Of a stretch of DNA of 64,000 nucleotides, positions 23,024-34,800 are shown piece by piece. The stretch is from Caldora sp. (GTDB taxonomy: Bacteria > Cyanobacteriota > Cyanobacteriia > Cyanobacteriales > Coleofasciculaceae), in NCBI GenBank assembly GCA_965222765.1, contig CBDCVG010000043.1:33053-97052 (forward strand), read 5' to 3'. The notes beneath the pieces were generated by a model. That model was not told the DNA's origin, ran no database searches, and was given only the letters and a program-made list of their open reading frames with translations. Each line of letters starts with the position of its first letter. The first letter of the stretch is position 1. A program made the translations under genes and the position numbers.

Positions 23024-25333
23024 ATGGCTCAAATCGATTTACAACTCCAGGCAATTGATATTAATAGCTGGGAACAAAAGCCTATTAATATCTCTGCTCA
23101 AATTCAGTCTCACGGAGTATTGTTGGTTCTAGAAGAACCTGAGCTCAAGATATTACAAGTTAGCAGCAATACATCCAGTATTTTAGGCATATCTCCCGAA
23201 AATATACTGCATCAAAAACTCGAAGACTTATTAGATCCTTTCCAAGTTGATAGACTCAAAACCGGATTAGCCGATGACAACCTGGATTTTATCAACCCGA
23301 CTAAGGTTTGGATCAGGAAAAAGGGAGACGATTACGTAGTATTTGATAGTATTTTTCATCGCAACTCAGATGGATTGCTAATTCTTGAATTAGAGCCAGC
23401 CATCTCCCAAGATAATATCCCCTTCTTAAGCTTTTATCATCTAGCGAGAGCATCCATCAACCAACTTCAATCAACATCTACTCTCCGTGACTTTTGTCAA
23501 ATTATTGTTAAAGAGGTACGACAAGTTACTGGATTTGACAGAGTCATGCTTTATAAATTTGATGAGGATGGGCATGGAAGTGTTATTGCAGAAGAAAAGC
23601 TAGAAAGTATGGAACCTTACCTAGGTCTCCACTACCCAGAGTCAGATATTCCTAAAGTTGCCAGAAAATTATTCAGTTCTAATTGGATCAGATTAATTCC
23701 TGATGCTCATGGTCAGTTGGCGGAAATTCTCTCTGCCGATAACCCCATTAGCCAGGAGCCCCTGGATTTAACCCACTCTATTCTCAGAAGTGCTTCCTCC
23801 TGTCATCTAGAATATTTGCACAATATGGGAGTTGGTGCTTCGCTGACGATCTCTTTAATTAAAGACCAAAAACTCTGGGGATTAATTGCCTGCCATCATC
23901 AGACACCAAAGTATGTTTCCTATGAACTAAGAAAAGCCTGCGAATTTTTAGGACGAGTGATATTTTCGGAAATCTCTGCTCGAGAAGAAACTGAAGATTA
24001 CGACTATCGCATGAAACTGACATATATCCAATCAGTGTTGATTGACTATATGTCCCAAGAAGCAAACTTTATTGATGGTTTAGTCAAACATGAGCCTAAT
24101 TTACTAGATTTAACTTCTGCTCAAGGAGCAGCTGTGTGTTTGGGTGACCGTTGCACTGTAATTGGTGAAACTCCCACAGAAGAAGAACTGAATTTCCTCA
24201 TGCAATGGCTGAAAAAGCATGTTGACAAAGAAGTCTTCTATACTGATTCCTTGCCTCTGATTTATGCAGATGCAGAAAAATTTAAAGATATGGCTAGTGG
24301 TTTACTTGCCATCGCCATTTCTGAGAGAAACTATGTATTGTGGTTTCGACCAGAAGTTATTCAAACAGTAAATTGGGGAGGGGATCCTAATAGAGCATTT
24401 GAAACCAAACACTCAGAAGGAAATCTCTGCCTGTCTCCTCGTAAGTCATTCGAGTTGTGGAAACAAACGGTTCGATTAAAGTCTTTACCTTGGAAACAGG
24501 TAGAAATTAAAGCAGCACTGGAACTGAGGAAAGCACTGATTAATCTTATTCTGCGTCAAGCCGATGAACTTGCTCAATTAGCTCAGGATCTAGAGCGTTC
24601 TAATGCTGAACTGAAAAAGTTTGCCTATGTTGCCTCCCATGATCTTCAAGAACCGCTCAATCAAGTAGCAAACTATGTACAGTTATTAGAGATGCGCTAT
24701 GAAGAGCGGCTTGATGAAGATGCCAAGGATTTCATTACCTTTGCTGTAGAGGGAGTCAGCTTGATGCAGACACTGATTGATGATGTGTTGGCTTACTCAA
24801 AAGTTGATTTGAAAGGCATTGAGTTTGAACTCACGGAGGTAGAGACGGCTCTAGAGCAAGCTCTGAGTAATTTGCGGGGGCGCGTCTATGAGACTGGAGC
24901 AATTATTACCCAAGAGTCCTTACCAACTGTGATGGCTGATAGTACTCAGCTGATGCAATTATTTCAAAATCTGATTGGTAATGCCATTAAGTTCCGGAGT
25001 AAACAACCACCAAAAATCCATATAGGAGCAAAACGGTTGGAAGATGCTTGGTTATTCTCCGTCCAGGATAATGGCATTGGCCTTGAACCACAGTTTGCTG
25101 AGCGCATTTTTGTTATCTTTCAGCGTCTGCATACGCGGGATGAGTATCAGGGTACAGGCATGGGTTTGGCTATCTGTAAAAAGATTATAGAGTGCCATCG
25201 GGGTCGTATTTGGGTAGAGTCAGAACTTGGACAAGGCGCAACGTTCTACTTTACTATTCCAGTGGGGGGACGTGAACATGAGCGTAGGAACGGAAGAAAA
25301 GCACAAAGTAATCTTCTTAGTAGAGGACAATAA
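23024..25333 (+). CDS. cph1: Cph1-type cyanobacterial phytochrome (PAS-GAF-PHY-HisKA-HATPase)
   Basis: IQSHGVLLVLEEPELKILQVSSN (phytochrome PAS). GAF chromophore pocket RSASSCHLEYLHNMGVGASLTISL with Cys-His. H-box ASHDLQEPL. G-boxes. Confidence 0.85.
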   Translation: MAQIDLQLQAIDINSWEQKPINISAQIQSHGVLLVLEEPELKILQVSSNTSSILGISPENILHQKLEDLLDPFQVDRLKTGLADDNLDFINPTKVWIRKKGDDYVVFDSIFHRNSDGLLILELEPAISQDNIPFLSFYHLARASINQLQSTSTLRDFCQIIVKEVRQVTGFDRVMLYKFDEDGHGSVIAEEKLESMEPYLGLHYPESDIPKVARKLFSSNWIRLIPDAHGQLAEILSADNPISQEPLDLTHSILRSASSCHLEYLHNMGVGASLTISLIKDQKLWGLIACHHQTPKYVSYELRKACEFLGRVIFSEISAREETEDYDYRMKLTYIQSVLIDYMSQEANFIDGLVKHEPNLLDLTSAQGAAVCLGDRCTVIGETPTEEELNFLMQWLKKHVDKEVFYTDSLPLIYADAEKFKDMASGLLAIAISERNYVLWFRPEVIQTVNWGGDPNRAFETKHSEGNLCLSPRKSFELWKQTVRLKSLPWKQVEIKAALELRKALINLILRQADELAQLAQDLERSNAELKKFAYVASHDLQEPLNQVANYVQLLEMRYEERLDEDAKDFITFAVEGVSLMQTLIDDVLAYSKVDLKGIEFELTEVETALEQALSNLRGRVYETGAIITQESLPTVMADSTQLMQLFQNLIGNAIKFRSKQPPKIHIGAKRLEDAWLFSVQDNGIGLEPQFAERIFVIFQRLHTRDEYQGTGMGLAICKKIIECHRGRIWVESELGQGATFYFTIPVGGREHERRNGRKAQSNLLSRGQ

Positions 25334-25724
25334 AGCTGATATTCGCCTGATTCAAGAAGCTCTCAAAAATAGTTCAGTACCACACCAAGTGGTGACGGTT
25401 AGGAATGGTATGGATGCTATGGCTTACTTACGCCAAGAGGGCGAATATGTTGATGCGCTCCGTCCAGATCTAATCCTGCTAGATTTGAATTTACCAAGGA
25501 AGGATGGCAGAGAGGTGCTAGCGGAAATTAAAGCTGATCCGAAGCTCAAACGCATTCCAGTGGTAGTGCTAACGACTTCGAGGAATGAGGATGATATTTT
25601 CCATAGCTATAACTTGCATGTAAATTGCTACATTACTAAATCCCGCAACCTCAGTCAGCTATTCCAAATTGTCAAGGGTATTGAAGAGTTTTGGCTAGAA
25701 ACCGTTACTCTGCCATCCGAGTGA
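25278..25724 (+). CDS. rcp1: Rcp1-like CheY-type response regulator partner of Cph1
   Basis: MSVGTEEKHKVIFLVEDNKADIRLIQEAL resembles Rcp1 N-terminus. D...D...K receiver residues. ATG at 25278 overlaps the cph1 3' end in another frame. The longer listed ORF start (25227) is unlikely. Confidence 0.75.
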   Translation: MSVGTEEKHKVIFLVEDNKADIRLIQEALKNSSVPHQVVTVRNGMDAMAYLRQEGEYVDALRPDLILLDLNLPRKDGREVLAEIKADPKLKRIPVVVLTTSRNEDDIFHSYNLHVNCYITKSRNLSQLFQIVKGIEEFWLETVTLPSE

Positions 25725-25778
25725 GACGAAATTGACGCAGGGAAAAGGGAATGCTGGAAACAAGGAGACAAAGGAGAA

Positions 25779-25818
25779 ATTCTTAATTCTTAATTCTTAA
25801 TTCCCAATTCCCAATTTA
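25779..25818. repeat. STRR heptamers (TTCTTAA / TTCCCAA)
   Basis: ttcttaattcttaattcttaattcccaattcccaatt. Confidence 0.9.
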
Positions 25819-25847
25819 GGAGCTAAGGAGGTAAAAACTAGAAGATT

Positions 25848-27014
25848 ATGCCTTTAAGCTCAGTAAAAATCTTGTTGATTGAGGACAACTTAGCAGAAGC
25901 CAGACTACTGCAAGAAGTGCTTAAGGGCGCTACATTAAAACAGTTTAGTTTGCTACATGTCAAGCGATTAAGGGAAGCCCTCGACCAACTCAATCAAGAT
26001 GAGTTTGATATCATCTTGTTGGATCTGAGCTTACCAGATAGTCAAGGATTGTCATCCCTCACTCCTCTTATCAACCGTGCCCCTAGCATACCAATCGTTG
26101 TACTAACGAATACCAACGACAATGAACTGGCAATTGAAGCAGTCAGACAAGGAGCGCAAGATTATTTGGTTAAGCGTCAGCTCAATAGAGAAGTGTTGAT
26201 TCGCTCCGTAAGCTATGCCATTGAGCGCAAACAAGCTTTGGAGGAATTACGGGAAGTCAACGAAACCTTAGAAATCCAGGTTCAGGAACAGACTGCGGAG
26301 TTAATGAAAGCCAAAAAGCTTAACCAACTCAAATCTGAGTTTGTCTCTATGCTCTCTCACGACTTTCGCAATCCTCTCAATACGATTCTCCTTTCGACTG
26401 GATTACTTCAAGAGAACACCTACAAATTAACTAAGGAGAAAAAACTTACTCATTTCCAACTGATTCGCTCGGCGATCAATAATATGACTCAGTTATTGGA
26501 TGAAGTTTTATTGATCGGTAAAGCAGATTCCGGTAGTCTTAAGTTTCAACCTACCCCACTGGCTTTGGAGTCGTTCTGCCATCAGTTGGTAGAAGAGCTA
26601 CAACTAACAGCTAGCAAGAAACATCAGTTAGTTTTCACCAACTTTGGGGAATTGGACGAAGCACTATGGGATAAAAGCCTACTAAGACACATTTTTGGCA
26701 ATTTGCTGGACAACGCTATTAAATATTCACCAGAAGGTGGTATAGTTCGATTTCAACTGATAGTTCAGGAAAAAACAGTCATCTTCCGGATTCAAGACCA
26801 AGGGATTGGCATTCCTCCTGAATACCAAAAGCAAATATTCGATCCTTTTACTCGTGCTAGCAATGTTAACACAATTACTGGAACTGGTTTAGGTCTAGCA
26901 ATGGTTAACAGATGTGTAGAGCTTCATGGTGGTCAAATTTATGTGGAGAGTGAAGTGGGAGTAGGTACAACTTTTATTGTTACCCTACCGTTGCTCTTCC
27001 CACCAAAGCCTTAA
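25848..27014 (+). CDS. Hybrid response-regulator / histidine kinase (REC-HisKA-HATPase_c)
   Basis: KILLIEDNLAEARLL...DIILLDLSLPD receiver. H-box SHDFRNPLNTIL. N/G-boxes GNLLDNAIKYS ... GTGLGLAMV. Confidence 0.8.
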   Translation: MPLSSVKILLIEDNLAEARLLQEVLKGATLKQFSLLHVKRLREALDQLNQDEFDIILLDLSLPDSQGLSSLTPLINRAPSIPIVVLTNTNDNELAIEAVRQGAQDYLVKRQLNREVLIRSVSYAIERKQALEELREVNETLEIQVQEQTAELMKAKKLNQLKSEFVSMLSHDFRNPLNTILLSTGLLQENTYKLTKEKKLTHFQLIRSAINNMTQLLDEVLLIGKADSGSLKFQPTPLALESFCHQLVEELQLTASKKHQLVFTNFGELDEALWDKSLLRHIFGNLLDNAIKYSPEGGIVRFQLIVQEKTVIFRIQDQGIGIPPEYQKQIFDPFTRASNVNTITGTGLGLAMVNRCVELHGGQIYVESEVGVGTTFIVTLPLLFPPKP

Positions 27015-27368: not shown

Positions 27369-28592
27369 ATGTTACTAGCAGAAAGACACATTATTAAGAA
27401 AGGACATCGATTTTGGACCCAGATAGATAATTTATCTTGGCAGTCCAAAAATCTTTACAACTCAGCTAATTATATAATCCGTCAAAACTTTATTTATGGC
27501 TATGGCTATTTGACTTATAATCAGATGGCTTCACTGATGAAAACAAAGGAGCAATATCAAGCCTTACCCGCTAAAGTTTCACAGCAAATATTAAGAGCAT
27601 TACACCGTAACTGGAAATCATTTTTGGCAGCATCATCAGAATTTAAGACTAATCCTAATAAGTTTCTGGGAAAACCGAAAATCCCCGGTTATAAAGATAA
27701 AAACAAGGGGAGAAATCTTTTAGTCTATACGATTCAAGCTCTGAGTAAAGTCGCCCTAAAACAGGGTTTGCTCAAACTATCGGGGACTTCAATCGAGTTG
27801 ACTACTAGAGTTGCAAACTTGATCGCTGAAGTCAGAATTGTTCCCAAATGTGATTGTTATGTAATCGAGGTTATTTATGAAAAAAATGAACAGTTCTTAG
27901 TCCCTAATGAGAAAATAGCGGCAATAGATTTGGGGGTAGATAATTTGATGGCTGTAACTTCAAATCAACCGGATTTTACTCCTTTGTTGATTAATGGTAG
28001 ACCCTTAAAAAGCCTGAACCAATTTTATAACCAACGTCGTGCTTTCTTACAATCGAGATTACCAGGTAATCGTCAAACTTCTCAAAGAATTCGCCGTCTA
28101 ACTCGCTGTCGCAATCAGAAAGTAGATGATTATCTTCACAAGGCTAGTCGTTATTTAGTTAATCTCTTGACACAGCAACAAATTACCACTTTAGTTATTG
28201 GCAATAATCTCGGCTGGAAACAAGAGGTAAACTTAGGGAAAGTCAATAACCAAAAATTTGTGACTATCCCCCATGCTCGATTAATTGACATGATTACTTA
28301 CAAATGTCAATTAGTAGGAATACATGTGATTCTTCAAGAAGAATCCTATACTAGTGCTTCTAACTTTTTCAATAATGATCCGCTCCCAGTTTATGGACAG
28401 ATAACTGAAAAACCAGTTTTTTCAGGAAAAAGAATAAAGCGAGGTTTATATCGTACAGATGGAGGATTTCTCTGTCAATCCGATGTGATGGGTTCCTACA
28501 ATATTTTAAGAAAAGCATTCCCAAATGCGTTTACTCGCTATGGGATAGAGAGGTGCGTAGTTCACCCCAGGAGAATTAATCTCTCAAAGTGA
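27369..28592 (+). CDS. tnpB: TnpB-like RNA-guided-nuclease-family protein (IS607-type OrfB) with RuvC D/E/D residues present but zinc-finger cysteines lost
   Basis: RuvC-I IAAIDLGVDNL. RuvC-II LQEESYTSASNFF. RuvC-III region FLCQSDVMGSYNILRKAF. The usual CxxC...CxxC is replaced by ...FSGKRIKRGLYRTDGGFLCQSD. Confidence 0.65.
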   Translation: MLLAERHIIKKGHRFWTQIDNLSWQSKNLYNSANYIIRQNFIYGYGYLTYNQMASLMKTKEQYQALPAKVSQQILRALHRNWKSFLAASSEFKTNPNKFLGKPKIPGYKDKNKGRNLLVYTIQALSKVALKQGLLKLSGTSIELTTRVANLIAEVRIVPKCDCYVIEVIYEKNEQFLVPNEKIAAIDLGVDNLMAVTSNQPDFTPLLINGRPLKSLNQFYNQRRAFLQSRLPGNRQTSQRIRRLTRCRNQKVDDYLHKASRYLVNLLTQQQITTLVIGNNLGWKQEVNLGKVNNQKFVTIPHARLIDMITYKCQLVGIHVILQEESYTSASNFFNNDPLPVYGQITEKPVFSGKRIKRGLYRTDGGFLCQSDVMGSYNILRKAFPNAFTRYGIERCVVHPRRINLSK

Positions 28593-28789: not shown

Positions 28790-31696
28790 ATGACGCTAAC
28801 TCAGGTTTGGGGAGCTTTGCTCATTTTTACTGTCTGTCCCCTGTTGGGGGGAGTTCCCCTAATTGCCGGGATTACCTACGCACTAACAAGGCGTCAGCTA
28901 GCGCAGTTGGGTACTGGTAATATATCTGTGTCAGCAGCTTTTTACCACGGGGGACGCTTAGTTGGTATCCTGGCAGTTTTGTCGGAGGCAGGCAAGGGAA
29001 TTGCTGCTGTTTTACTGGCTCGTTACTTCTTTCCGACAGAACTATCATGGGAGCTGATTGCTCTAATTATGCTGGTAATGGGTAGATACTGGATGGGTAA
29101 AGGAGCAGGGACGACTAATGTAGTCTGGGGCTTTGTGGTACATGACCCGATCGCGGCTTTCTTGATATTCTTAATTGGGGGAATTAGTTTTACCATATTC
29201 CGCGATCGCACTAGTGGACGGCTGGGGGTACTCATCCTGATGCCTATGATGTTAGCACTGGTATACCCTCAAGACTTATCAAGAGTAGTATTCGCAGCTG
29301 TCCTTGGTTTATTACTCGGTTGGATTTATCAAAAAATCCCCGATGATTTAGAACTTCCCACTAAACAAGGTAAGGCAGAATCTCAAAGAGTGTTTCGTTT
29401 TTTTCGAGGCGATCGCGCCATAGTTTCTCTTAATAGTAAGCTAGATGCCCAGAAGGTGGGGCAAAAAGCTGCAACCCTATCTCAATTAAAGGATTGGGGT
29501 TATCCTGTACCTCCTGGTTGGGTTCTACCACCGGGAGATGATGCCACACCCCTGATTAAACACCTCCCAGTTTCCGAATCTCAACCTCTGGTAGTACGCT
29601 CTTCAGCAGTAGGGGAAGATTCAGAATTTGCCTCTGCAGCAGGAGTATATCAAAGTGTTTTGCATGTCACCAATCCCCTAGCTTTGCAGGAAGCGATTAC
29701 CCTAGTCCTAGCATCTTACAGGAAACCAGTTGCAGCTCAATATCGACGCGATCGCTCTTTGCCAGATATCTCCATGGCAGTGCTGATTCAGCAACAAATT
29801 CCGGGGGTTTTTTCTGGGGTTGCTTTTAGCCGAGATCCGATTGCTCAACAGGGAGAGGCAGTATTAATCGAGGGATTACCGGGGGATGCGACTAGAGTAG
29901 TATCAGGACAAGTGACACCAGAGCAGTATCGAGTGTATCTCCAGGAATCACAAAGGGCAACAGAAGGAGAAAATCAACCCGTTATCACCTCACAAATCGA
30001 AGGTACTGGTGATGTACCTCCAACCCTAGTAAAGCAAGTAGCGATCCTAGCCAGGGAACTGGAGAAACGATACGACAGCATTCCCCAGGACATCGAATGG
30101 ACTTATGATGGTCAACAGTTATGGTTACTACAAGCACGACCGATTACTACCCTGCAGCCTCTTTGGACTCGTAAAATTGCTGCTGAGGTGATTCCTGGTT
30201 TAATTAGACCCCTTACTTGGTCGATTAATCGTCCCCTCACTTGCGGTGTTTGGGGGGAAATCTTTACTCTAGTATTAGGTAAGCGAGCAGCTGGTTTAGA
30301 TTTTAATCAGACAGCAACCCTTCACTATTCCCATGCCTACTTCAATGCCACTCTGTTAGGGCAAATTTTTCGCCGCATGGGTTTGCCAGCAGAAAGTTTG
30401 GAATTTCTCACCAGAGGAGCTAAGTTCTCCAAACCGCCTACTAGTTCCACTCTGCGGAATCTGCCGGGATTACTGCGCTTACTGGGTAAGGAATGGAATT
30501 TAGAACAAGAATTTGAATTAGATTACCAACAACAATTTGCCCCCACCCTGAGTCAGCTGCATAGTCAAGAGTTGTCTCAATTGTCCCCTTCAGCCTTACT
30601 AGAAAGAATAGACGGGATTTTAGAGGTTTTGCAACAAGCTACTTACTACAGCATCCTTGCTCCCCTAAGTAGCTCCCTGCGACAAGCATTGCTGCAAGTT
30701 AAAGATACAGAACTAGATAACAGCCAAACACCAGAAGTTGCCAGTTTGCGATCGCTTTCTCAAATAGCAGCAGATGCTCGTCATTTATTATCCCAGGAGC
30801 AAGTAATTAGTGATAGTGGTGCTTCCCTGTTTACTACCCTAGCAGAAAGCCCAGACGGTCAAAGTATTGTGGAGCAGTTTGAGCAATTTTTAGAGAGTTA
30901 TGGCTACCTGAGTGAAGTAGCAACCGATATTGCCATTCCCACCTGGAAAGAAGACCCCAGAGCCGTGCGGCGACTATTTACTCAATTTCTCTCTAATCCT
31001 CCTCCAAAGTCTGTACCACCGACACAACAGGGTTTACGAGCCCAGCTAGTACAGGTACGCTTAAATCTGAAAGGTAGAGTTACCCAAGTTTACTCTGAGT
31101 TGTTGGCTCATCTTCGCTGGAGCTTTGTGGCACTGGAAACTACTTGGTTACAAGGGGGTCTACTATCAGAACCAGGGGATATTTTTTTCTTGGAGTTTGC
31201 CCAAATCCGTTCTTTAGTTGCCAATGCTGATTTGGAATTAAAACAGCAGCTTCCCCAATTATTACAACAGCAGCGCAGTGAACTGGAAAGGAACCGTCAA
31301 TTGGCGAGTATACCTTTCTTAGTCTATGGGAATAATCCTCCTGCTCCGGTTGCCTCTATTTCTCCATCCCTTCAACGACAGCTGCAAGGCATTGGTGCTA
31401 GTGCTGGACAAGCAGAGGGTTTGGTGAAGGTAGTGACAGACTTCCAATCCTGTGATGATTTTGACAGTCAAACTATTCTCGTTGTACCTTACACTGACTC
31501 TGGTTGGGCTCCTCTACTCGCCCGAGCTGGTGGTTTAATTGCAGAAGTGGGAGGGCGTCTTTCCCATGGTGCCATTGTAGCTCGTGAGTATGGCATCCCA
31601 GCGGTTATGGATATCCCTAATGCTATCCAAGTATTACATGATGGTCAAAAGGTACGTATTGATGGTCAGTTGGGTATTGTTGAAATACTGGATTGA
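28790..31696 (+). CDS. Fusion protein: divergent PlsY-like polytopic membrane domain (about 190 aa) + PEP-synthase-N-like ATP-grasp domain + PEP-utilising swivel phosphohistidine domain, with no TIM-barrel
   Basis: N-terminus GTGNISVSAA / EAGKGIAAVLLA / GRYWMGKGAGTTN parallels the PlsY motifs GSGNxGATN / D..KG / GHxxxxFKGGKGVAT. Middle KVGQKAATLSQLKDWGYPVPPGWVL (PPDK_N). C-terminus GGRLSHGAIVAREYGIPAV (catalytic His of the PEP-utilising mobile domain). Confidence 0.65.
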   Translation: MTLTQVWGALLIFTVCPLLGGVPLIAGITYALTRRQLAQLGTGNISVSAAFYHGGRLVGILAVLSEAGKGIAAVLLARYFFPTELSWELIALIMLVMGRYWMGKGAGTTNVVWGFVVHDPIAAFLIFLIGGISFTIFRDRTSGRLGVLILMPMMLALVYPQDLSRVVFAAVLGLLLGWIYQKIPDDLELPTKQGKAESQRVFRFFRGDRAIVSLNSKLDAQKVGQKAATLSQLKDWGYPVPPGWVLPPGDDATPLIKHLPVSESQPLVVRSSAVGEDSEFASAAGVYQSVLHVTNPLALQEAITLVLASYRKPVAAQYRRDRSLPDISMAVLIQQQIPGVFSGVAFSRDPIAQQGEAVLIEGLPGDATRVVSGQVTPEQYRVYLQESQRATEGENQPVITSQIEGTGDVPPTLVKQVAILARELEKRYDSIPQDIEWTYDGQQLWLLQARPITTLQPLWTRKIAAEVIPGLIRPLTWSINRPLTCGVWGEIFTLVLGKRAAGLDFNQTATLHYSHAYFNATLLGQIFRRMGLPAESLEFLTRGAKFSKPPTSSTLRNLPGLLRLLGKEWNLEQEFELDYQQQFAPTLSQLHSQELSQLSPSALLERIDGILEVLQQATYYSILAPLSSSLRQALLQVKDTELDNSQTPEVASLRSLSQIAADARHLLSQEQVISDSGASLFTTLAESPDGQSIVEQFEQFLESYGYLSEVATDIAIPTWKEDPRAVRRLFTQFLSNPPPKSVPPTQQGLRAQLVQVRLNLKGRVTQVYSELLAHLRWSFVALETTWLQGGLLSEPGDIFFLEFAQIRSLVANADLELKQQLPQLLQQQRSELERNRQLASIPFLVYGNNPPAPVASISPSLQRQLQGIGASAGQAEGLVKVVTDFQSCDDFDSQTILVVPYTDSGWAPLLARAGGLIAEVGGRLSHGAIVAREYGIPAVMDIPNAIQVLHDGQKVRIDGQLGIVEILD

Positions 31697-31803: not shown

Positions 31804-33141
31804 TTAATTTTTAATACCCTTAAACTGTTCTTGTGCTGCCTTAAAGGCTTCTTTCATAACCAACTGAATCTTGTCAGGATCCGGTTTTTTACCCCCCATT
31901 AAATCTCCAAAGTAAACACAGGCTCCTTCACCTAGTGCCCAGGTATAGGCAGCTGCCCAGGAAGCAGCAATCACACTACCGAAGACGGGTAGGAATTTGA
32001 TTAACTCCCGCCCAACTGCCTGTGCGAGGAAACCACCAGCAATTGCACTGACAACTCCTCCAGCTTGAGATGAGGTCAACGTTTGCCCATACAATTGTCC
32101 CAAAAGACCTACCATCGAGACTTGCAAAGTCGTGAGTACAGGCATAGTAGCAAATGGTAAGGGTACAGCTGCTAAGGTAGCCGCCATAATAGCAAATGCC
32201 AACATGTAACGCCTTCCAACATCCCGGTAGAGGTTACCCAATTGCTTACTAGCATCCTCATCTAATAGCTGATAAATGGCACGAGCTTCAACTTCCGGGA
32301 GGAGCTCTGCTAGAGTATCCCTCAGGGCTTCTAAGCCATAAAATACTGGATTATAGTTATCTTCCTCTAAGGTGAAGTCGATTAATACAGTGCGATCGCA
32401 CAATTCTGCAAAAGCTTGCTTAATCCCTTCAAAGACTCGGTTAACTTCTTCATAGTCAGGTGGATAGGCAGGATGATCCCCAATATTGGGAGGATAAACC
32501 TCATGCAAGCAAGTAACTGCCAACAGACAGGGAATATCTGGATACTGCTGACGCAGCTGTTGCGCTATTTGTCGTAGCGTGTCAGTAGCAAAATCATTGA
32601 TTTTGACAGTTAAAATCAGGACTCTGGCACAACTAGTAGACTCTTGCAAATCCCCAACTAGTTCCTGAATAATGACCTGAGTATCCTGGTTGACATCTCC
32701 GAGTCCCACCGTATCAGTAAAAATAAGCAAGGGTAGGTCATCCGAAGGATAGGCATAGCGCTCAGTATGTTGGGTGTGGGGACGAAATCCCTGGCCAATA
32801 ATTTCAGCAGAAACTCCCGTCAATCCCCGCACAATCGAACTTTTTCCAGCTTGGGGTTTTCCAATCAGAAGAGCTTCTGTAGTTGGCAGTTCTGCTCTAA
32901 CCGTCTCCAAAATTTCTGCAACCTGAGCCTCGTTGACGCTAAATAATTCAACAGCTGTTTGTGCTACTTGCTCTATGGGTAGAAGTTTCATCAAACTGCT
33001 TGTTGTACTATGCCAAACCCCAGTAATGCGGTTTGTCCAAGAATCCTTTTGTGGTTCATTTGTACTATTTTTAGTAGATTCATCCAACTCCTGAGAATCA
33101 GTTGCAGGGGAGTGAGCATTATGTTCCTCAGTCATAGGCAA
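31804..33141 (-). CDS. GTPase (MMR_HSR1-like G domain) with C-terminal DUF697/YcjF-like membrane domain
   Basis: G1 GKPQAGKSS, G3 DTVGLGD. C-terminal hydrophobic helices AIMAATLAAVPLPFATMPVLTTLQVSMVGLLGQLYG. Confidence 0.6.
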   Translation of the reverse strand: MPMTEEHNAHSPATDSQELDESTKNSTNEPQKDSWTNRITGVWHSTTSSLMKLLPIEQVAQTAVELFSVNEAQVAEILETVRAELPTTEALLIGKPQAGKSSIVRGLTGVSAEIIGQGFRPHTQHTERYAYPSDDLPLLIFTDTVGLGDVNQDTQVIIQELVGDLQESTSCARVLILTVKINDFATDTLRQIAQQLRQQYPDIPCLLAVTCLHEVYPPNIGDHPAYPPDYEEVNRVFEGIKQAFAELCDRTVLIDFTLEEDNYNPVFYGLEALRDTLAELLPEVEARAIYQLLDEDASKQLGNLYRDVGRRYMLAFAIMAATLAAVPLPFATMPVLTTLQVSMVGLLGQLYGQTLTSSQAGGVVSAIAGGFLAQAVGRELIKFLPVFGSVIAASWAAAYTWALGEGACVYFGDLMGGKKPDPDKIQLVMKEAFKAAQEQFKGIKN

Positions 33142-34800
33142 AAGTGGCAGATAGCTTCTAACTCAATCCTATCTATACGAGGCTGGTTTTGCAGGAGAGA
33201 AACAACATATAGATTTAAAGGTGCGTTACGCTACGCCTACGCTAACACACCCTACAAATCGAGGCTTTGCGTAAGTCCTGAGATTGACATCCTCCCTCCG
33301 CTAACCTCTAACGAGGTATAGCAGGGGATTCCCAAGAGTTCTTGGTTCGCAGTTCATCGAGCCGACTTAGAACCAGAGCGTCTCCGTTCTTGAGCCAGAG
33401 GTCAGTTTCTCCCTGCGCTTTCGAGCTTTTGGCTCCGGATTCTGTATGCCCTACAGTACCGTTTAAATATTCAGCTAATAACAATAATCCTTTTTTCAAG
33501 ATGTTTTTGGCTGCGTTATGGTCGCGGTCTAATACCGTTTTACAATTACTGCATTTATGTGTTCTGGTGCTAAGTGTTTTCTTCACCTTCGCCTTACAAC
33601 ATGAGCAATCAACAGTTGTATTGTGAGGCACTACAGCAATAACTATCACACCATACACTTTGGCAAAGTATTGAAGCCATTTGGTGAATCGATACCAAGA
33701 TGCATCGCTGATGGATTTAGCTAGCTGGTGATTTTTTACCATGTTTTTTATCTTCAAGTCCTCGTAGACAATTAAATCTTTCGACTTAACTAGCGCCAAA
33801 GCATCTTTACGAGCTTTGTCTTCACGCTGTCTACTTACCTTCAGATGTTGCTTCGCTAAAGCCTTGCGTGCCTTGTGGTATCTGTTAGACTGTTTCTTCT
33901 TTTCAACATGTTTCTTGGAAACTCGACGTTGAAGCATCTTTAATCTTCGTTCGGATTTCCTCAAATATCGAGGGTTGTCAACAGTATTTCCATCGGAATC
34001 GGTATAGAACTCTTTTAGTCCTAAATCAATTCCCGTCATTTTCCCTTGAAATTCATGCTTCTCTCGTCTATCCCAATCCACTAAGAACTGAGCATAGTAG
34101 CCGTCAGCACGTCTTATGACTCGAACTCTTCGGATTTGTTTTTCCCTGGTCCAAACTAAATCCCTAGAACTCCACAAATCCATCATTCCGACTTGAAAAC
34201 CATCAGTGAAAGTTATAGTCCTTCTCTCAGCAGACAATTTCCACCCTGAATTTTTGTACTCGAGGGAACGACTGAATTTTTTGTAGCGAGGATAGCCTTT
34301 TTTACCGGGTTTTCCTAATCTACAGTTTTCATAAAAACGCTGAATGGCAGACCATGCCCTATCAGCGTGAGCCTGCCTTGCTTGGGAGTTGAGTTTTTTC
34401 GCCCAAGGGGCAAGTTTGTCCTTAGCTAGTAGGGCGCAAAGCTTTTGGAGGTCGTTACGAGTGACCCGTCTGTTATCTTCCCAATAGCGCAAACAGGTGT
34501 TGCGGATGAACTGCCCTGTTCGGATTGCTTCATCCAACTTGCTGTACTGAACTTTGGTTCCTTTGAGCTTGGCTTCAATGACTAGCATGAGACCAAGCAT
34601 AACATATTTTACCGACTACGAATACAGGTATAATTATTTGGATTCGCTACCGCTCAATTGTTAGCTGGTCGGCATTCATCTCACCGCTAAACCATTGGCG
34701 GTACTCGGCTACGCCTCGATAAATCCGCCTCGGTTATAGCGGGAGCCTTCTGCCGACATTAAGGTAAAATTTTATAGGTTATGCTTTTATTCAGCAGCCC
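33142..34800 (-). mobile_element. tnpB-only IS200/IS605-family (IS1341-like) element: LE with subterminal hairpins (about 34600-34800), tnpB, RE/omega-RNA region (about 33142-33400)
   Basis: Complete TnpB ORF. LE hairpin gtcggcattc...gccttctgccgac. RE-proximal segment tttgtagggtgtgttagcgtaggcgtagcgtaacgcac has a solo homologue at 54150-54195. Confidence 0.6.
33308..34600 (-). CDS. tnpB: TnpB (IS200/IS605 OrfB) RNA-guided endonuclease, apparently intact
   Basis: N-terminus VIEAKLKGTKVQYSKLDEAIRTGQFIRNTCLRYW. RuvC-I IDLGLKEFYTDSDG. RuvC-II E in YEDLKIKNM region. Zn finger CSCCKAKVKK...HKCSNCKTVLDRDHNAAKNI. Confidence 0.85.
   Translation of the reverse strand: MLGLMLVIEAKLKGTKVQYSKLDEAIRTGQFIRNTCLRYWEDNRRVTRNDLQKLCALLAKDKLAPWAKKLNSQARQAHADRAWSAIQRFYENCRLGKPGKKGYPRYKKFSRSLEYKNSGWKLSAERRTITFTDGFQVGMMDLWSSRDLVWTREKQIRRVRVIRRADGYYAQFLVDWDRREKHEFQGKMTGIDLGLKEFYTDSDGNTVDNPRYLRKSERRLKMLQRRVSKKHVEKKKQSNRYHKARKALAKQHLKVSRQREDKARKDALALVKSKDLIVYEDLKIKNMVKNHQLAKSISDASWYRFTKWLQYFAKVYGVIVIAVVPHNTTVDCSCCKAKVKKTLSTRTHKCSNCKTVLDRDHNAAKNILKKGLLLLAEYLNGTVGHTESGAKSSKAQGETDLWLKNGDALVLSRLDELRTKNSWESPAIPR

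Follow-up and report, generated by a model that had tools for sequence, protein, structure and literature searches.

Which substrate would call for a phosphotransferase that is built into the membrane? The question is raised by one gene of the cyanobacterium Caldora sp., which lies in a stretch of 64,000 nucleotides (assembly GCA_965222765.1, contig CBDCVG010000043.1, positions 33,053 to 97,052; hereafter the window). The open reading frame (ORF) at 28790..31696 on the forward strand encodes, in a single uninterrupted frame starting with ATG, a protein of 968 residues in which the fold of the acyltransferase PlsY is joined to the complete architecture of rifampin phosphotransferase (RPH). The protein belongs to a large, conserved and uncharacterized enzyme family that combines an RPH-type dikinase with a repurposed membrane partner of the PlsY fold. 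On balance, we favor the view that it is a dikinase integral to the membrane, whose substrate is a lipid or amphiphile bound in the PlsY-derived pocket. A preliminary description of the gene, made from its sequence alone, had read it as a membrane-anchored ATP-dependent phosphotransferase; both sequence and fold support that reading, while the lipid substrate is still something that we infer. The parts of the gene are as follows.

28790..31696, + strand: whole gene, PlsY-like/RPH-like dikinase fusion; stop codon at 31694-31696; orthologues align end to end

28790..29359, + strand: PlsY-fold membrane module, residues 1-190, with seven transmembrane (TM) helices, predicted N-out/C-in (PF02660; Foldseek match to 5xj5)

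28910..28948, + strand: motif-1-like cytoplasmic loop, G41-T-G-N-I-S-V-S-A-A-F-Y-H53 (alignment with aaPlsY, the Aquifex enzyme)

29081..29119, + strand: R99 (equivalent of His92) and the shortened Gly-rich phosphate-hole loop, G98-R-Y-W-M-G-K-G-A-G-T-T-N110

29327..29350, + strand: motif-3 position after TM7, Y180-Q-K-I-P-D-D-L187 (His177 replaced by Y180, Asn180 by I183)

29360..29434, + strand: linker, residues 191-215, poorly conserved and modeled at a low pLDDT of ~58-62

29435..30163, + strand: ATP-grasp (PPDK_N) domain, residues 216-458 (PF01326; alignment to RPH-Lm, the Listeria RPH)

30164..31369, + strand: central RPH-type helical acceptor domain, residues 459-860 (PF27448, Foldseek and profile alignment)

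31370..31693, + strand: swivel phosphohistidine domain, residues 861-968, with the His926 codon at 31565-31567 (PF00391; alignment with His825 of RPH-Lm)

The N-terminal sequence MTLTQVWG is kept across orthologues, and the start codon is therefore taken to be called correctly. Three Pfam domains were found above their curated cut-offs, namely PF02660 (G3P_acyltransf/PlsY) at residues 16-178 (E=5.3e-15, 56.3 bits against a cut-off of 24.1), PPDK_N (PF01326) at residues 263-456 (E=1.7e-41, 143 bits) and PEP-utilizers (PF00391) at residues 892-962 (E=5e-22, 77.7 bits). No match to the phosphoenolpyruvate (PEP)/pyruvate TIM barrel (PEP-utilizers_C, PF02896) was obtained with Pfam anywhere in the 968 residues. 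The preliminary description had thus correctly named a polytopic membrane domain of ~190 residues, which has the seven-helix fold of PlsY, an ATP-grasp domain and a C-terminal mobile His domain, and had correctly noted the missing barrel. It overlooked the ~400 residues in between (459-860). These form a conserved helical domain related by homology to the one that binds rifampin in RPH, an assignment supported by a precomputed match to PF27448 (Rph_4th), by the full-length Foldseek match to 5hv1 and by a family profile that aligns to RPH residues 544-879. With this domain included, the order of ATP-grasp, central domain and C-terminal swivel His corresponds to RPH by both sequence and fold, in line with the RPH-type architecture that it had proposed. 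An AlphaFold2 model built from 62 sequences (pLDDT 83.8, pTM 0.63) has RPH-Lm (5hv1) as its top fold match in the PDB (E=1.5e-31 over 917 columns), and its N-terminal part superimposes on Aquifex PlsY (5xj5) with a TM-score of 0.75 and an rmsd of 2.7 A over 179 columns. A search of the PDB with the single sequence did not reach PlsY, for which the family profile and the fold search were required. Kinship with PlsY, whose failure by profile search was to have refuted the earlier reading, is therefore found twice over, by PF02660 and by the fold match. The motifs of interest were located at G41-TGNISVSAAFYH-53, G98-RYWMGKGAGTTN-110 and G921-GRLSHGAIVARE-933.

The modeled helices of the membrane module reproduce all seven of PlsY, including an unusually short TM helix 4 (TMH4, residues 108-118) as in aaPlsY, and the charges of the loops agree with an N-out/C-in topology, which places the kinase in the cytoplasm on the same side as the active site of PlsY. 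In aaPlsY, the phosphate of glycerol-3-phosphate (G3P) is clamped by Ser35, Arg45, Lys104 and Asn180, and its 2-OH is bound by Ser142 and His177, while acyl-phosphate is contacted by the side chains of Thr41 and His92 and by the main chain of the motif-2 Gly loop, the "phosphate hole"; mutation of Arg45, His177 or Asn180 each costs more than 90% of the activity (PMC5700162). We aligned the module with aaPlsY (5XJ5) and other canonical PlsYs. In the window protein Ser35 is replaced by T42, Thr41 by S48, Asn42 by A49, Arg45 by Y52, His92 by R99, Ser142 by R144, His177 by Y180 and Asn180 by I183, and the position of Lys104 is taken by K104 or A106, depending on gap placement. The exchange of Thr41 for Ser is tolerated in aaPlsY. 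The motif-2 stretch reads G103-K104-G105-A106-G107-T108-T109 and is preceded by a loop that is 5-7 residues shorter than the canonical one. The substitutions in PlsY motifs that had been noticed earlier are confirmed by this alignment, except that the residue then called the motif-3 His corresponds to His92, immediately ahead of motif 2; motif 3 proper consists of His177 and Asn180, and these are replaced too. Judged by its residues, the module is derived from PlsY but is not a true PlsY, and it would not bind G3P.

The loss of the G3P-clamp residues has not been accompanied by relaxed conservation. Among 30 cyanobacterial orthologues, G41, T42, G43, N44 and H53 of the motif-1-like loop are invariant, as are G105-N110 and P184, D185, D186 and L187. 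In total 48 of the 190 columns of the module are invariant, polar pocket residues at PlsY active-site positions among them. Mean pairwise identity in cyanobacteria is 0.68 for the module (25% of columns invariant), as compared with 0.64 (26%) in the ATP-grasp domain, 0.62 (23%) in the central domain, 0.72 (31%) in the swivel domain and only 0.53 (4%) in the linker. Because it is as conserved as the catalytic domains and has invariant polar residues at active-site positions, the module is not a loose anchor.

Further evidence comes from distant relatives. An exhaustive search in which only the membrane domain was used gave, at E<=1e-3, 134 of 1.84 billion cluster representatives, and a good many of these are 900-1150 residues long. 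The distant long matches, with membrane domains of 28-31% identity, have the same three Pfam domains, and this second clade can be aligned to the window protein over the full length (26-30% identity, E ~1e-93 to 1e-106); its fusion members are named by their sources as Dehalococcoidales, Bathyarchaeia and Lokiarchaeota. The same search returned many kinase-only proteins of ~780 residues from Thor- and Lokiarchaeota. Gene calls were examined for three loci of such split kinases, and in all three a PF02660 gene sits immediately beside the kinase gene and on its strand, in either order.

L081:2812-3522, same strand as the kinase gene: PlsY-like gene, upstream with a gap of 60 nt

L084:8362-9156, same strand as the kinase gene: PlsY-like gene of Thorarchaeota SMTZ1-83 (KXH70014.1), downstream with a gap of 3 nt

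L087:5406-6023, same strand as the kinase gene: PlsY-like gene, upstream and overlapping

A wider sample comprised 80 metagenomic loci, of which those with at least 1 kb on both sides were counted as well flanked, and a gene within 700 nt was counted as adjacent. Where the kinase shares at least 36% identity with the split kinases, 13 of 16 well-flanked loci carry a PlsY-like ORF that is either fused to it or adjacent; in one of the others a PlsY-like ORF lies at 3.5 kb, and two (L096, L103) have none. The kinases of 28-33% identity are mainly 15 cyanobacterial-type fusions, and near ~30 more distant RPH-like kinases, which served as an internal control, no PlsY-like gene was found. In a neighbor-joining tree of the kinase parts all linked kinases fall into one clade and unlinked kinases form a separate one; the cyanobacterial branch is uniformly fused and the other branch mixes fused and split forms. 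The tree has no support values and contains a few long-branch outliers, probably mis-picked ORFs, and is used as supporting evidence only. The pairing of the PlsY-like module with the kinase is conserved, as a fusion or as adjacent genes, in cyanobacteria, Chloroflexi and archaea, and since it recurs in one form or the other across lineages, the two parts appear to work together. The earlier suggestion that the module is a repurposed substrate-binding domain has thus gained strength from the lost clamp beside the kept phosphate hole, from conservation at the level of the catalytic domains and from the adjacency of the split genes.

The question then is whether the module could nevertheless be a mere membrane anchor, serving localization or regulation, with a soluble dikinase substrate bound in the central domain. 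The central domain is indeed large and conserved and has invariants of its own (Y768, R776), the acceptor site of RPH lies entirely within the corresponding domain (PMC4844700), and the two well-flanked loci without a nearby PlsY-like gene would fit such a role. An anchor should tolerate substitutions, however, yet a quarter of the columns of the module are invariant. The Gly-rich phosphate hole is also kept almost without exception: in a census of 37 kinase-linked PlsY-like sequences, 18 fused and 19 separate, Gly103 is retained in 37 and Gly105 in 36. Moreover, a passive anchor would give little reason for the pairing to persist once the two parts are encoded separately, whichever gene comes first. 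We consider this explanation decidedly unlikely.

Could the protein instead be a true G3P acyltransferase with a built-in generator of acyl-phosphate, converting fatty acid to acyl-phosphate and then to lysophosphatidic acid? The PF02660 match above cut-off, the PlsY fold and the retained glycines would agree with it, fusions of PlsY with DegV/FakB exist (PMC5700162), and many members of the family carry the database name "glycerol-3-phosphate acyltransferase". Against this, these three residues that aaPlsY needs, Arg45, His177 and Asn180, are replaced not only in the window protein but almost throughout the census, where Arg45 is kept in 2 of 37 sequences and His177 and Asn180 in none. TIGR00023, the curated PlsY equivalog of NCBI (cut-off 137.2 bits), gives 15.9 bits for residues 1-200 of the window protein, 82.8 for a fused module of the second clade (P0235), and 64.9 and 74.2 for two split partners (P0372, which is KXH70014.1, and P0374), as compared with 197.6 for a canonical PlsY from Nodularia (P0396). 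An ordinary standalone PlsY of ~226 residues also occurs throughout the Nostocales, including Nodularia, a genus in which the fusion is found as well, which suggests that the fusion is an additional paralogue and not the housekeeping enzyme. A genuine PlsY activity is accordingly judged very unlikely.

The kinase part looks competent from its residues. Residues K226, R270 and S289 align with Lys22, Arg117 and Thr136 of the RPH-Lm ATP site, and H926 aligns with the carrier His825 (roles from PMC4844700). K226 and R270 are invariant in the 30 cyanobacterial orthologues, and H926, in the GGxxxH carrier motif G921-G-R-L-S-H926, is invariant in both fused clades. Relatives have a T/S 8 residues before the carrier His; the window protein has Ala918 at this position, whereas some orthologues do have Ser or Thr. 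In the central domain, the second-site helix of RPH (Tyr-Arg666-Glu667-x-x-Lys670) aligns through the family profile to the helix 749-789 of the window protein, where Arg666 and Glu667 correspond to S769 and E770 of the sequence Y768-S769-E770. Both Y768 and R776 lie on this helix. The former does not vary among the 30 cyanobacterial orthologues and is at least 90% conserved when both clades are taken together, and the latter is the same in all 62 fused sequences from the two clades. The acceptor site would thus be in the same place as in RPH but differently built, as expected for a substrate other than that of RPH. Assignment to RPH proper was considered and rejected (NF041857, 195 bits against 999; NF000283, 126 against 1700). 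Because the RPH equivalog is missed and the second-site residues differ, the acceptor is not expected to be rifampin.

The fusion is widespread in cyanobacteria. With one genome scanned per species, full-length orthologues were found in at least 275 species; the carriers among the 80 loci that were fetched include Symploca, Moorena, Coleofasciculus, Oscillatoria, Crinalium, Chroococcidiopsis, Pleurocapsa, Halothece, Leptolyngbya JSC-1, Scytonema, Nodularia, Brasilonema and others; orthologues are thus held also by Nostocales such as Nodularia and Scytonema. The top database relatives are without exception full-length fusions (120 of 120, at 65-100% identity). The window protein is 96% identical to that of Symploca sp. 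SIO2C1 and shares a 90% cluster with its NEP09276.1, which points to a Symploca-like host and not to one of the Nostocales. The 80 loci from the species scan are labeled almost all as cyanobacteria.

This distribution bears on a further explanation, in which the enzyme serves detoxification or resistance, phosphorylating a hydrophobic xenobiotic or antibiotic that is captured by the PlsY-like module, with a MacB-type exporter to expel the product in some archaea. The closest solved and characterized relatives are rifampin phosphotransferases, and a MacB_PCD/FtsX permease and ABC_tran ATPase pair abuts the dikinase/PlsY-like module in one locus of Lokiarchaeota (L088:9054-11012) and one of Thorarchaeota (L084:4036-5988), in differing orders. 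That linkage is seen in only these 2 loci, however, and in cyanobacteria the gene behaves like one that is chromosomal and vertically conserved across orders at 58-96% identity, with no resistance-island context. The low RPH equivalog score and the lack of conservation at the positions of Arg666 and Glu667 argue in the same direction, so that a resistance function is, like a genuine PlsY activity, very improbable. The neighbors of the archaeal genes otherwise include, upstream in L088, GT87, UbiA and GtrA genes, whose families are connected with the metabolism of polyprenyl-phosphate sugars, as well as a divergent DedA/VTT gene in another locus and an acyl-CoA synthetase gene in one; these contexts are too few and too varied to indicate a substrate.

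An artefact of assembly or frameshift, which the preliminary description had named as a possible refutation, or a pseudogene in decay might be suggested by the two TnpB-type transposon ORFs flanking the gene, but can be given practically no weight in view of the uninterrupted frame, the hundreds of full-length orthologues in independent assemblies and the strong purifying conservation in all domains.

How, then, might the enzyme work? By homology with RPH, PPDK and HpeHI, ATP bound in the ATP-grasp site would be attacked at its beta-phosphate by His926, with release of AMP and inorganic phosphate, and the swivel domain would ferry the phosphoryl group to the acceptor site. The residue pattern suggests that the two features by which PlsY holds acyl-phosphate, the Gly-rich phosphate hole and the hydrophobic groove, are preserved in the PlsY-derived module, and that this pocket, at the cytoplasmic face of the membrane and next to the kinase, may house a lipid or amphiphile as substrate or product. 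With hole and groove kept, the G3P site lost and the kinase adjacent, a lipid or amphiphile is the most probable acceptor or product. The most likely chemistry would be phosphorylation of the head group of a membrane lipid, at a carboxylate or a hydroxyl, and the phosphorylated product may be either final or an activated intermediate that loses its phosphate in a later transfer. The latter course is plausible because PlsY, with acyl-phosphate, and the PigC-type relatives of the kinase both use phosphate as a leaving group. The fusions of PlsY with DegV/FakB are a precedent for PlsY joined to a supplier of acyl-phosphate (PMC5700162). Conversion of free fatty acid to acyl-phosphate is the specific reaction that we would name first, albeit with little confidence.

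Several points weigh against a lipid-phosphorylating dikinase. The central RPH-type domain, large and conserved as it is, could hold the acceptor alone and leave the membrane module a lesser role. To our knowledge, no swivel-His dikinase phosphorylates a carboxylate, which weakens the fatty-acid proposal in particular. The pocket residues vary by subclade (T/Y/R/Y/I in cyanobacteria, S-T/G/A-T/Y/x in the fused second clade and x/M-I/H/M-T/E-D in the split Asgard forms), and the substrates of the three subclades may differ. No operon partner is conserved across the 80 cyanobacterial loci, in which ORFs within 6 kb were clustered: the recurring neighbor families are generic (pentapeptide repeats in 17 of 80, and sensor kinases) or reflect lineage-specific synteny (psbA and an SGNH hydrolase, each in 9 of 80). 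Finally, our literature search found no experiment on any member of the family.

Should the protein nonetheless be a membrane-integral dikinase for lipids or amphiphiles, it would be the first of the RPH type to be integrated into the membrane, and a family known to act on antibiotics, phenols and pigments would gain a probable lipid as substrate. Literature searches on the fusion, on PlsY-like paralogues and on the combination of swivel domain and PlsY found no description of it. The family is present in at least 275 species of cyanobacteria and in several phyla of archaea and bacteria. Its members go by the public names "glycerol-3-phosphate acyltransferase", "pyruvate phosphate dikinase" and "pyruvate, water dikinase", which contradict one another and are probably all wrong.

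A further consequence concerns the Asgard archaea. Homologues of plsY in Loki-, Thor- and Heimdallarchaeota have been counted as bacterial-type phospholipid genes from 2017 to 2026 (PMC6431249, PMC6737245, PMC13400652), and the "PlsY" of Thorarchaeota SMTZ1-83 in the work on the lipid divide is KXH70014.1 (PMC6431249, supplementary file 5). This is the PF02660 gene that lies 3 nt downstream of the dikinase gene in L084; its product lacks Ser35, Arg45, His177 and Asn180 and, as given above, falls well below the TIGR00023 cut-off. By these residues and this linkage, at least the Thorarchaeota SMTZ1-83 "PlsY" belongs to the kinase-linked, clamp-less family, and as it stands it should therefore not be taken as evidence for acylation of G3P. 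One could go further and propose, tentatively and with rather more doubt than confidence, a hitherto unrecognized system for activation of membrane lipids, ancient and common to cyanobacteria, Chloroflexi, Bathyarchaeia and Asgard archaea, in which the dikinase phosphorylates a lipid head group within the membrane, for instance turning free fatty acid into acyl-phosphate, and the PlsY-like module holds the lipid phosphate or transfers its lipid group to an acceptor other than G3P. Were this true, the Asgard "PlsY" genes cited for synthesis of bacterial-type ester lipids would belong to a different pathway, with a bearing on the lipid divide and on the origin of eukaryotes.

The surroundings of the gene in the window are described here for completeness. 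The two TnpB-type ORFs, at 27369-28592 (+) and 33308-34600 (-), have OrfB_IS605 and Cas12f1-like TNB domains and bracket the gene together with its convergent neighbor; they may explain a local gene order unlike that of other cyanobacteria. The convergent neighbor, at 31804-33141 (-), encodes 445 residues that include an MMR_HSR1 GTPase domain and, toward the C-terminus, match the DUF697 membrane region weakly (25.7 bits, below the cut-off of 27.7), and it is absent from the neighbor families conserved across orthologous loci. Upstream, at 23024-27014 (+), are a phytochrome-type sensor kinase of 769 residues (PAS_2-GAF-PHY-HisKA-HATPase) and, following it, ORFs judged by eye from their translations to be response-regulator-like (25227-25724 and 25848-27014); this is an ordinary light-signaling cluster unrelated to the fusion gene. 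Around the gene no Rfam match was found at E<=1, and matches to promoters and terminators did not exceed the expectation from shuffling.

Some outlying relatives were also observed. Two cyanobacterial-type fusions, 69-73% identical to the window protein, come from bins labeled as non-photosynthetic relatives of cyanobacteria (L013, Candidatus Sericytochromatia; P0094, Candidatus Obscuribacterales) and could reflect mis-binning or lateral transfer. A standalone PlsY-like protein of 207 residues (P0156) has cyanobacterial-type motifs (GTGNIGVSAAFHHGG, GR..., ADDLDL) and no kinase part; either the gene is naturally split in this case or the gene call may have been cut short. Seven relatives of 344-424 residues (P0180, P0183, P0185, P0187, P0193, P0196, P0217) may be decayed or specialized paralogues; P0180, the sole one that was read, has a membrane domain without the motif-1 loop followed by a degenerate, truncated ATP-grasp-like region, and gave no Pfam match.

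In comparison with known systems, the name PEP synthase or PPDK, which databases give to many members, reflects the shared ATP-grasp and phosphohistidine swivel domains. It was rejected for the window protein, which has no PF02896 barrel and whose swivel domain is C-terminal and not central; the PEP synthase equivalogs give 146-227 bits against cut-offs of 598-1063, short by a factor of 3-6, with a best subfamily score of 227 against 945. RPH of Listeria (RPH-Lm, 5FBS/5HV1) is the top match in the PDB by sequence as well as by fold, with the same order of domains, equivalent catalytic residues and likewise no TIM barrel. The window protein differs from it by the added N-terminal seven-helix module of PlsY fold, and identity is only ~19-20%. 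HpeHI, CreHI and phenylphosphate synthase PpsAB, which are of the same superfamily, demonstrate that a dikinase of the RPH type can be encoded by separate cooperating genes (PMC12167813), and HpeI (9GOJ) matches the ATP-grasp domain of the window protein in fold and sequence; the split in those systems, however, separates ATP-grasp from central-plus-swivel, and the enzymes are soluble and act on phenols.

On the membrane side, aaPlsY (5XJ5-5XJ9; EC 2.3.1.275) shares with the module the seven-TM fold with its short TMH4, the PF02660 family and the phosphate hole of motif 2. The module differs in lacking the G3P clamp and the 2-OH ligands, in having Arg for His92 and a shorter loop, and in failing TIGR00023. 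Fusion or coupling to a kinase is unreported for PlsY, for which only DegV fusions are listed (PMC5700162). The FakA/FakB system together with PlsY offers a functional analogy, as there too a kinase makes a lipid phosphate, acyl-phosphate, that is bound by a protein of PlsY fold. FakA is of the Dak type, however, and not homologous to the swivel-His dikinases, FakB/DegV is a soluble fatty-acid binder, and the PlsY partner is canonical.

The prodiginine ligases PigC, RedH and HapC likewise consist of three domains arranged as in RPH, and in NCBIfam PigC and RedH score among the highest for the window protein (215 and 208.7 bits). Identity with them was rejected on the cut-offs (215 against 1300 and 208.7 against 1350). 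The window gene has no prodiginine gene context, and unlike the window protein these ligases are soluble and have no membrane module. In these enzymes, phosphorylation activates the substrate, which then reacts with loss of the phosphate, and this logic of activation would also suit a partner derived from PlsY.

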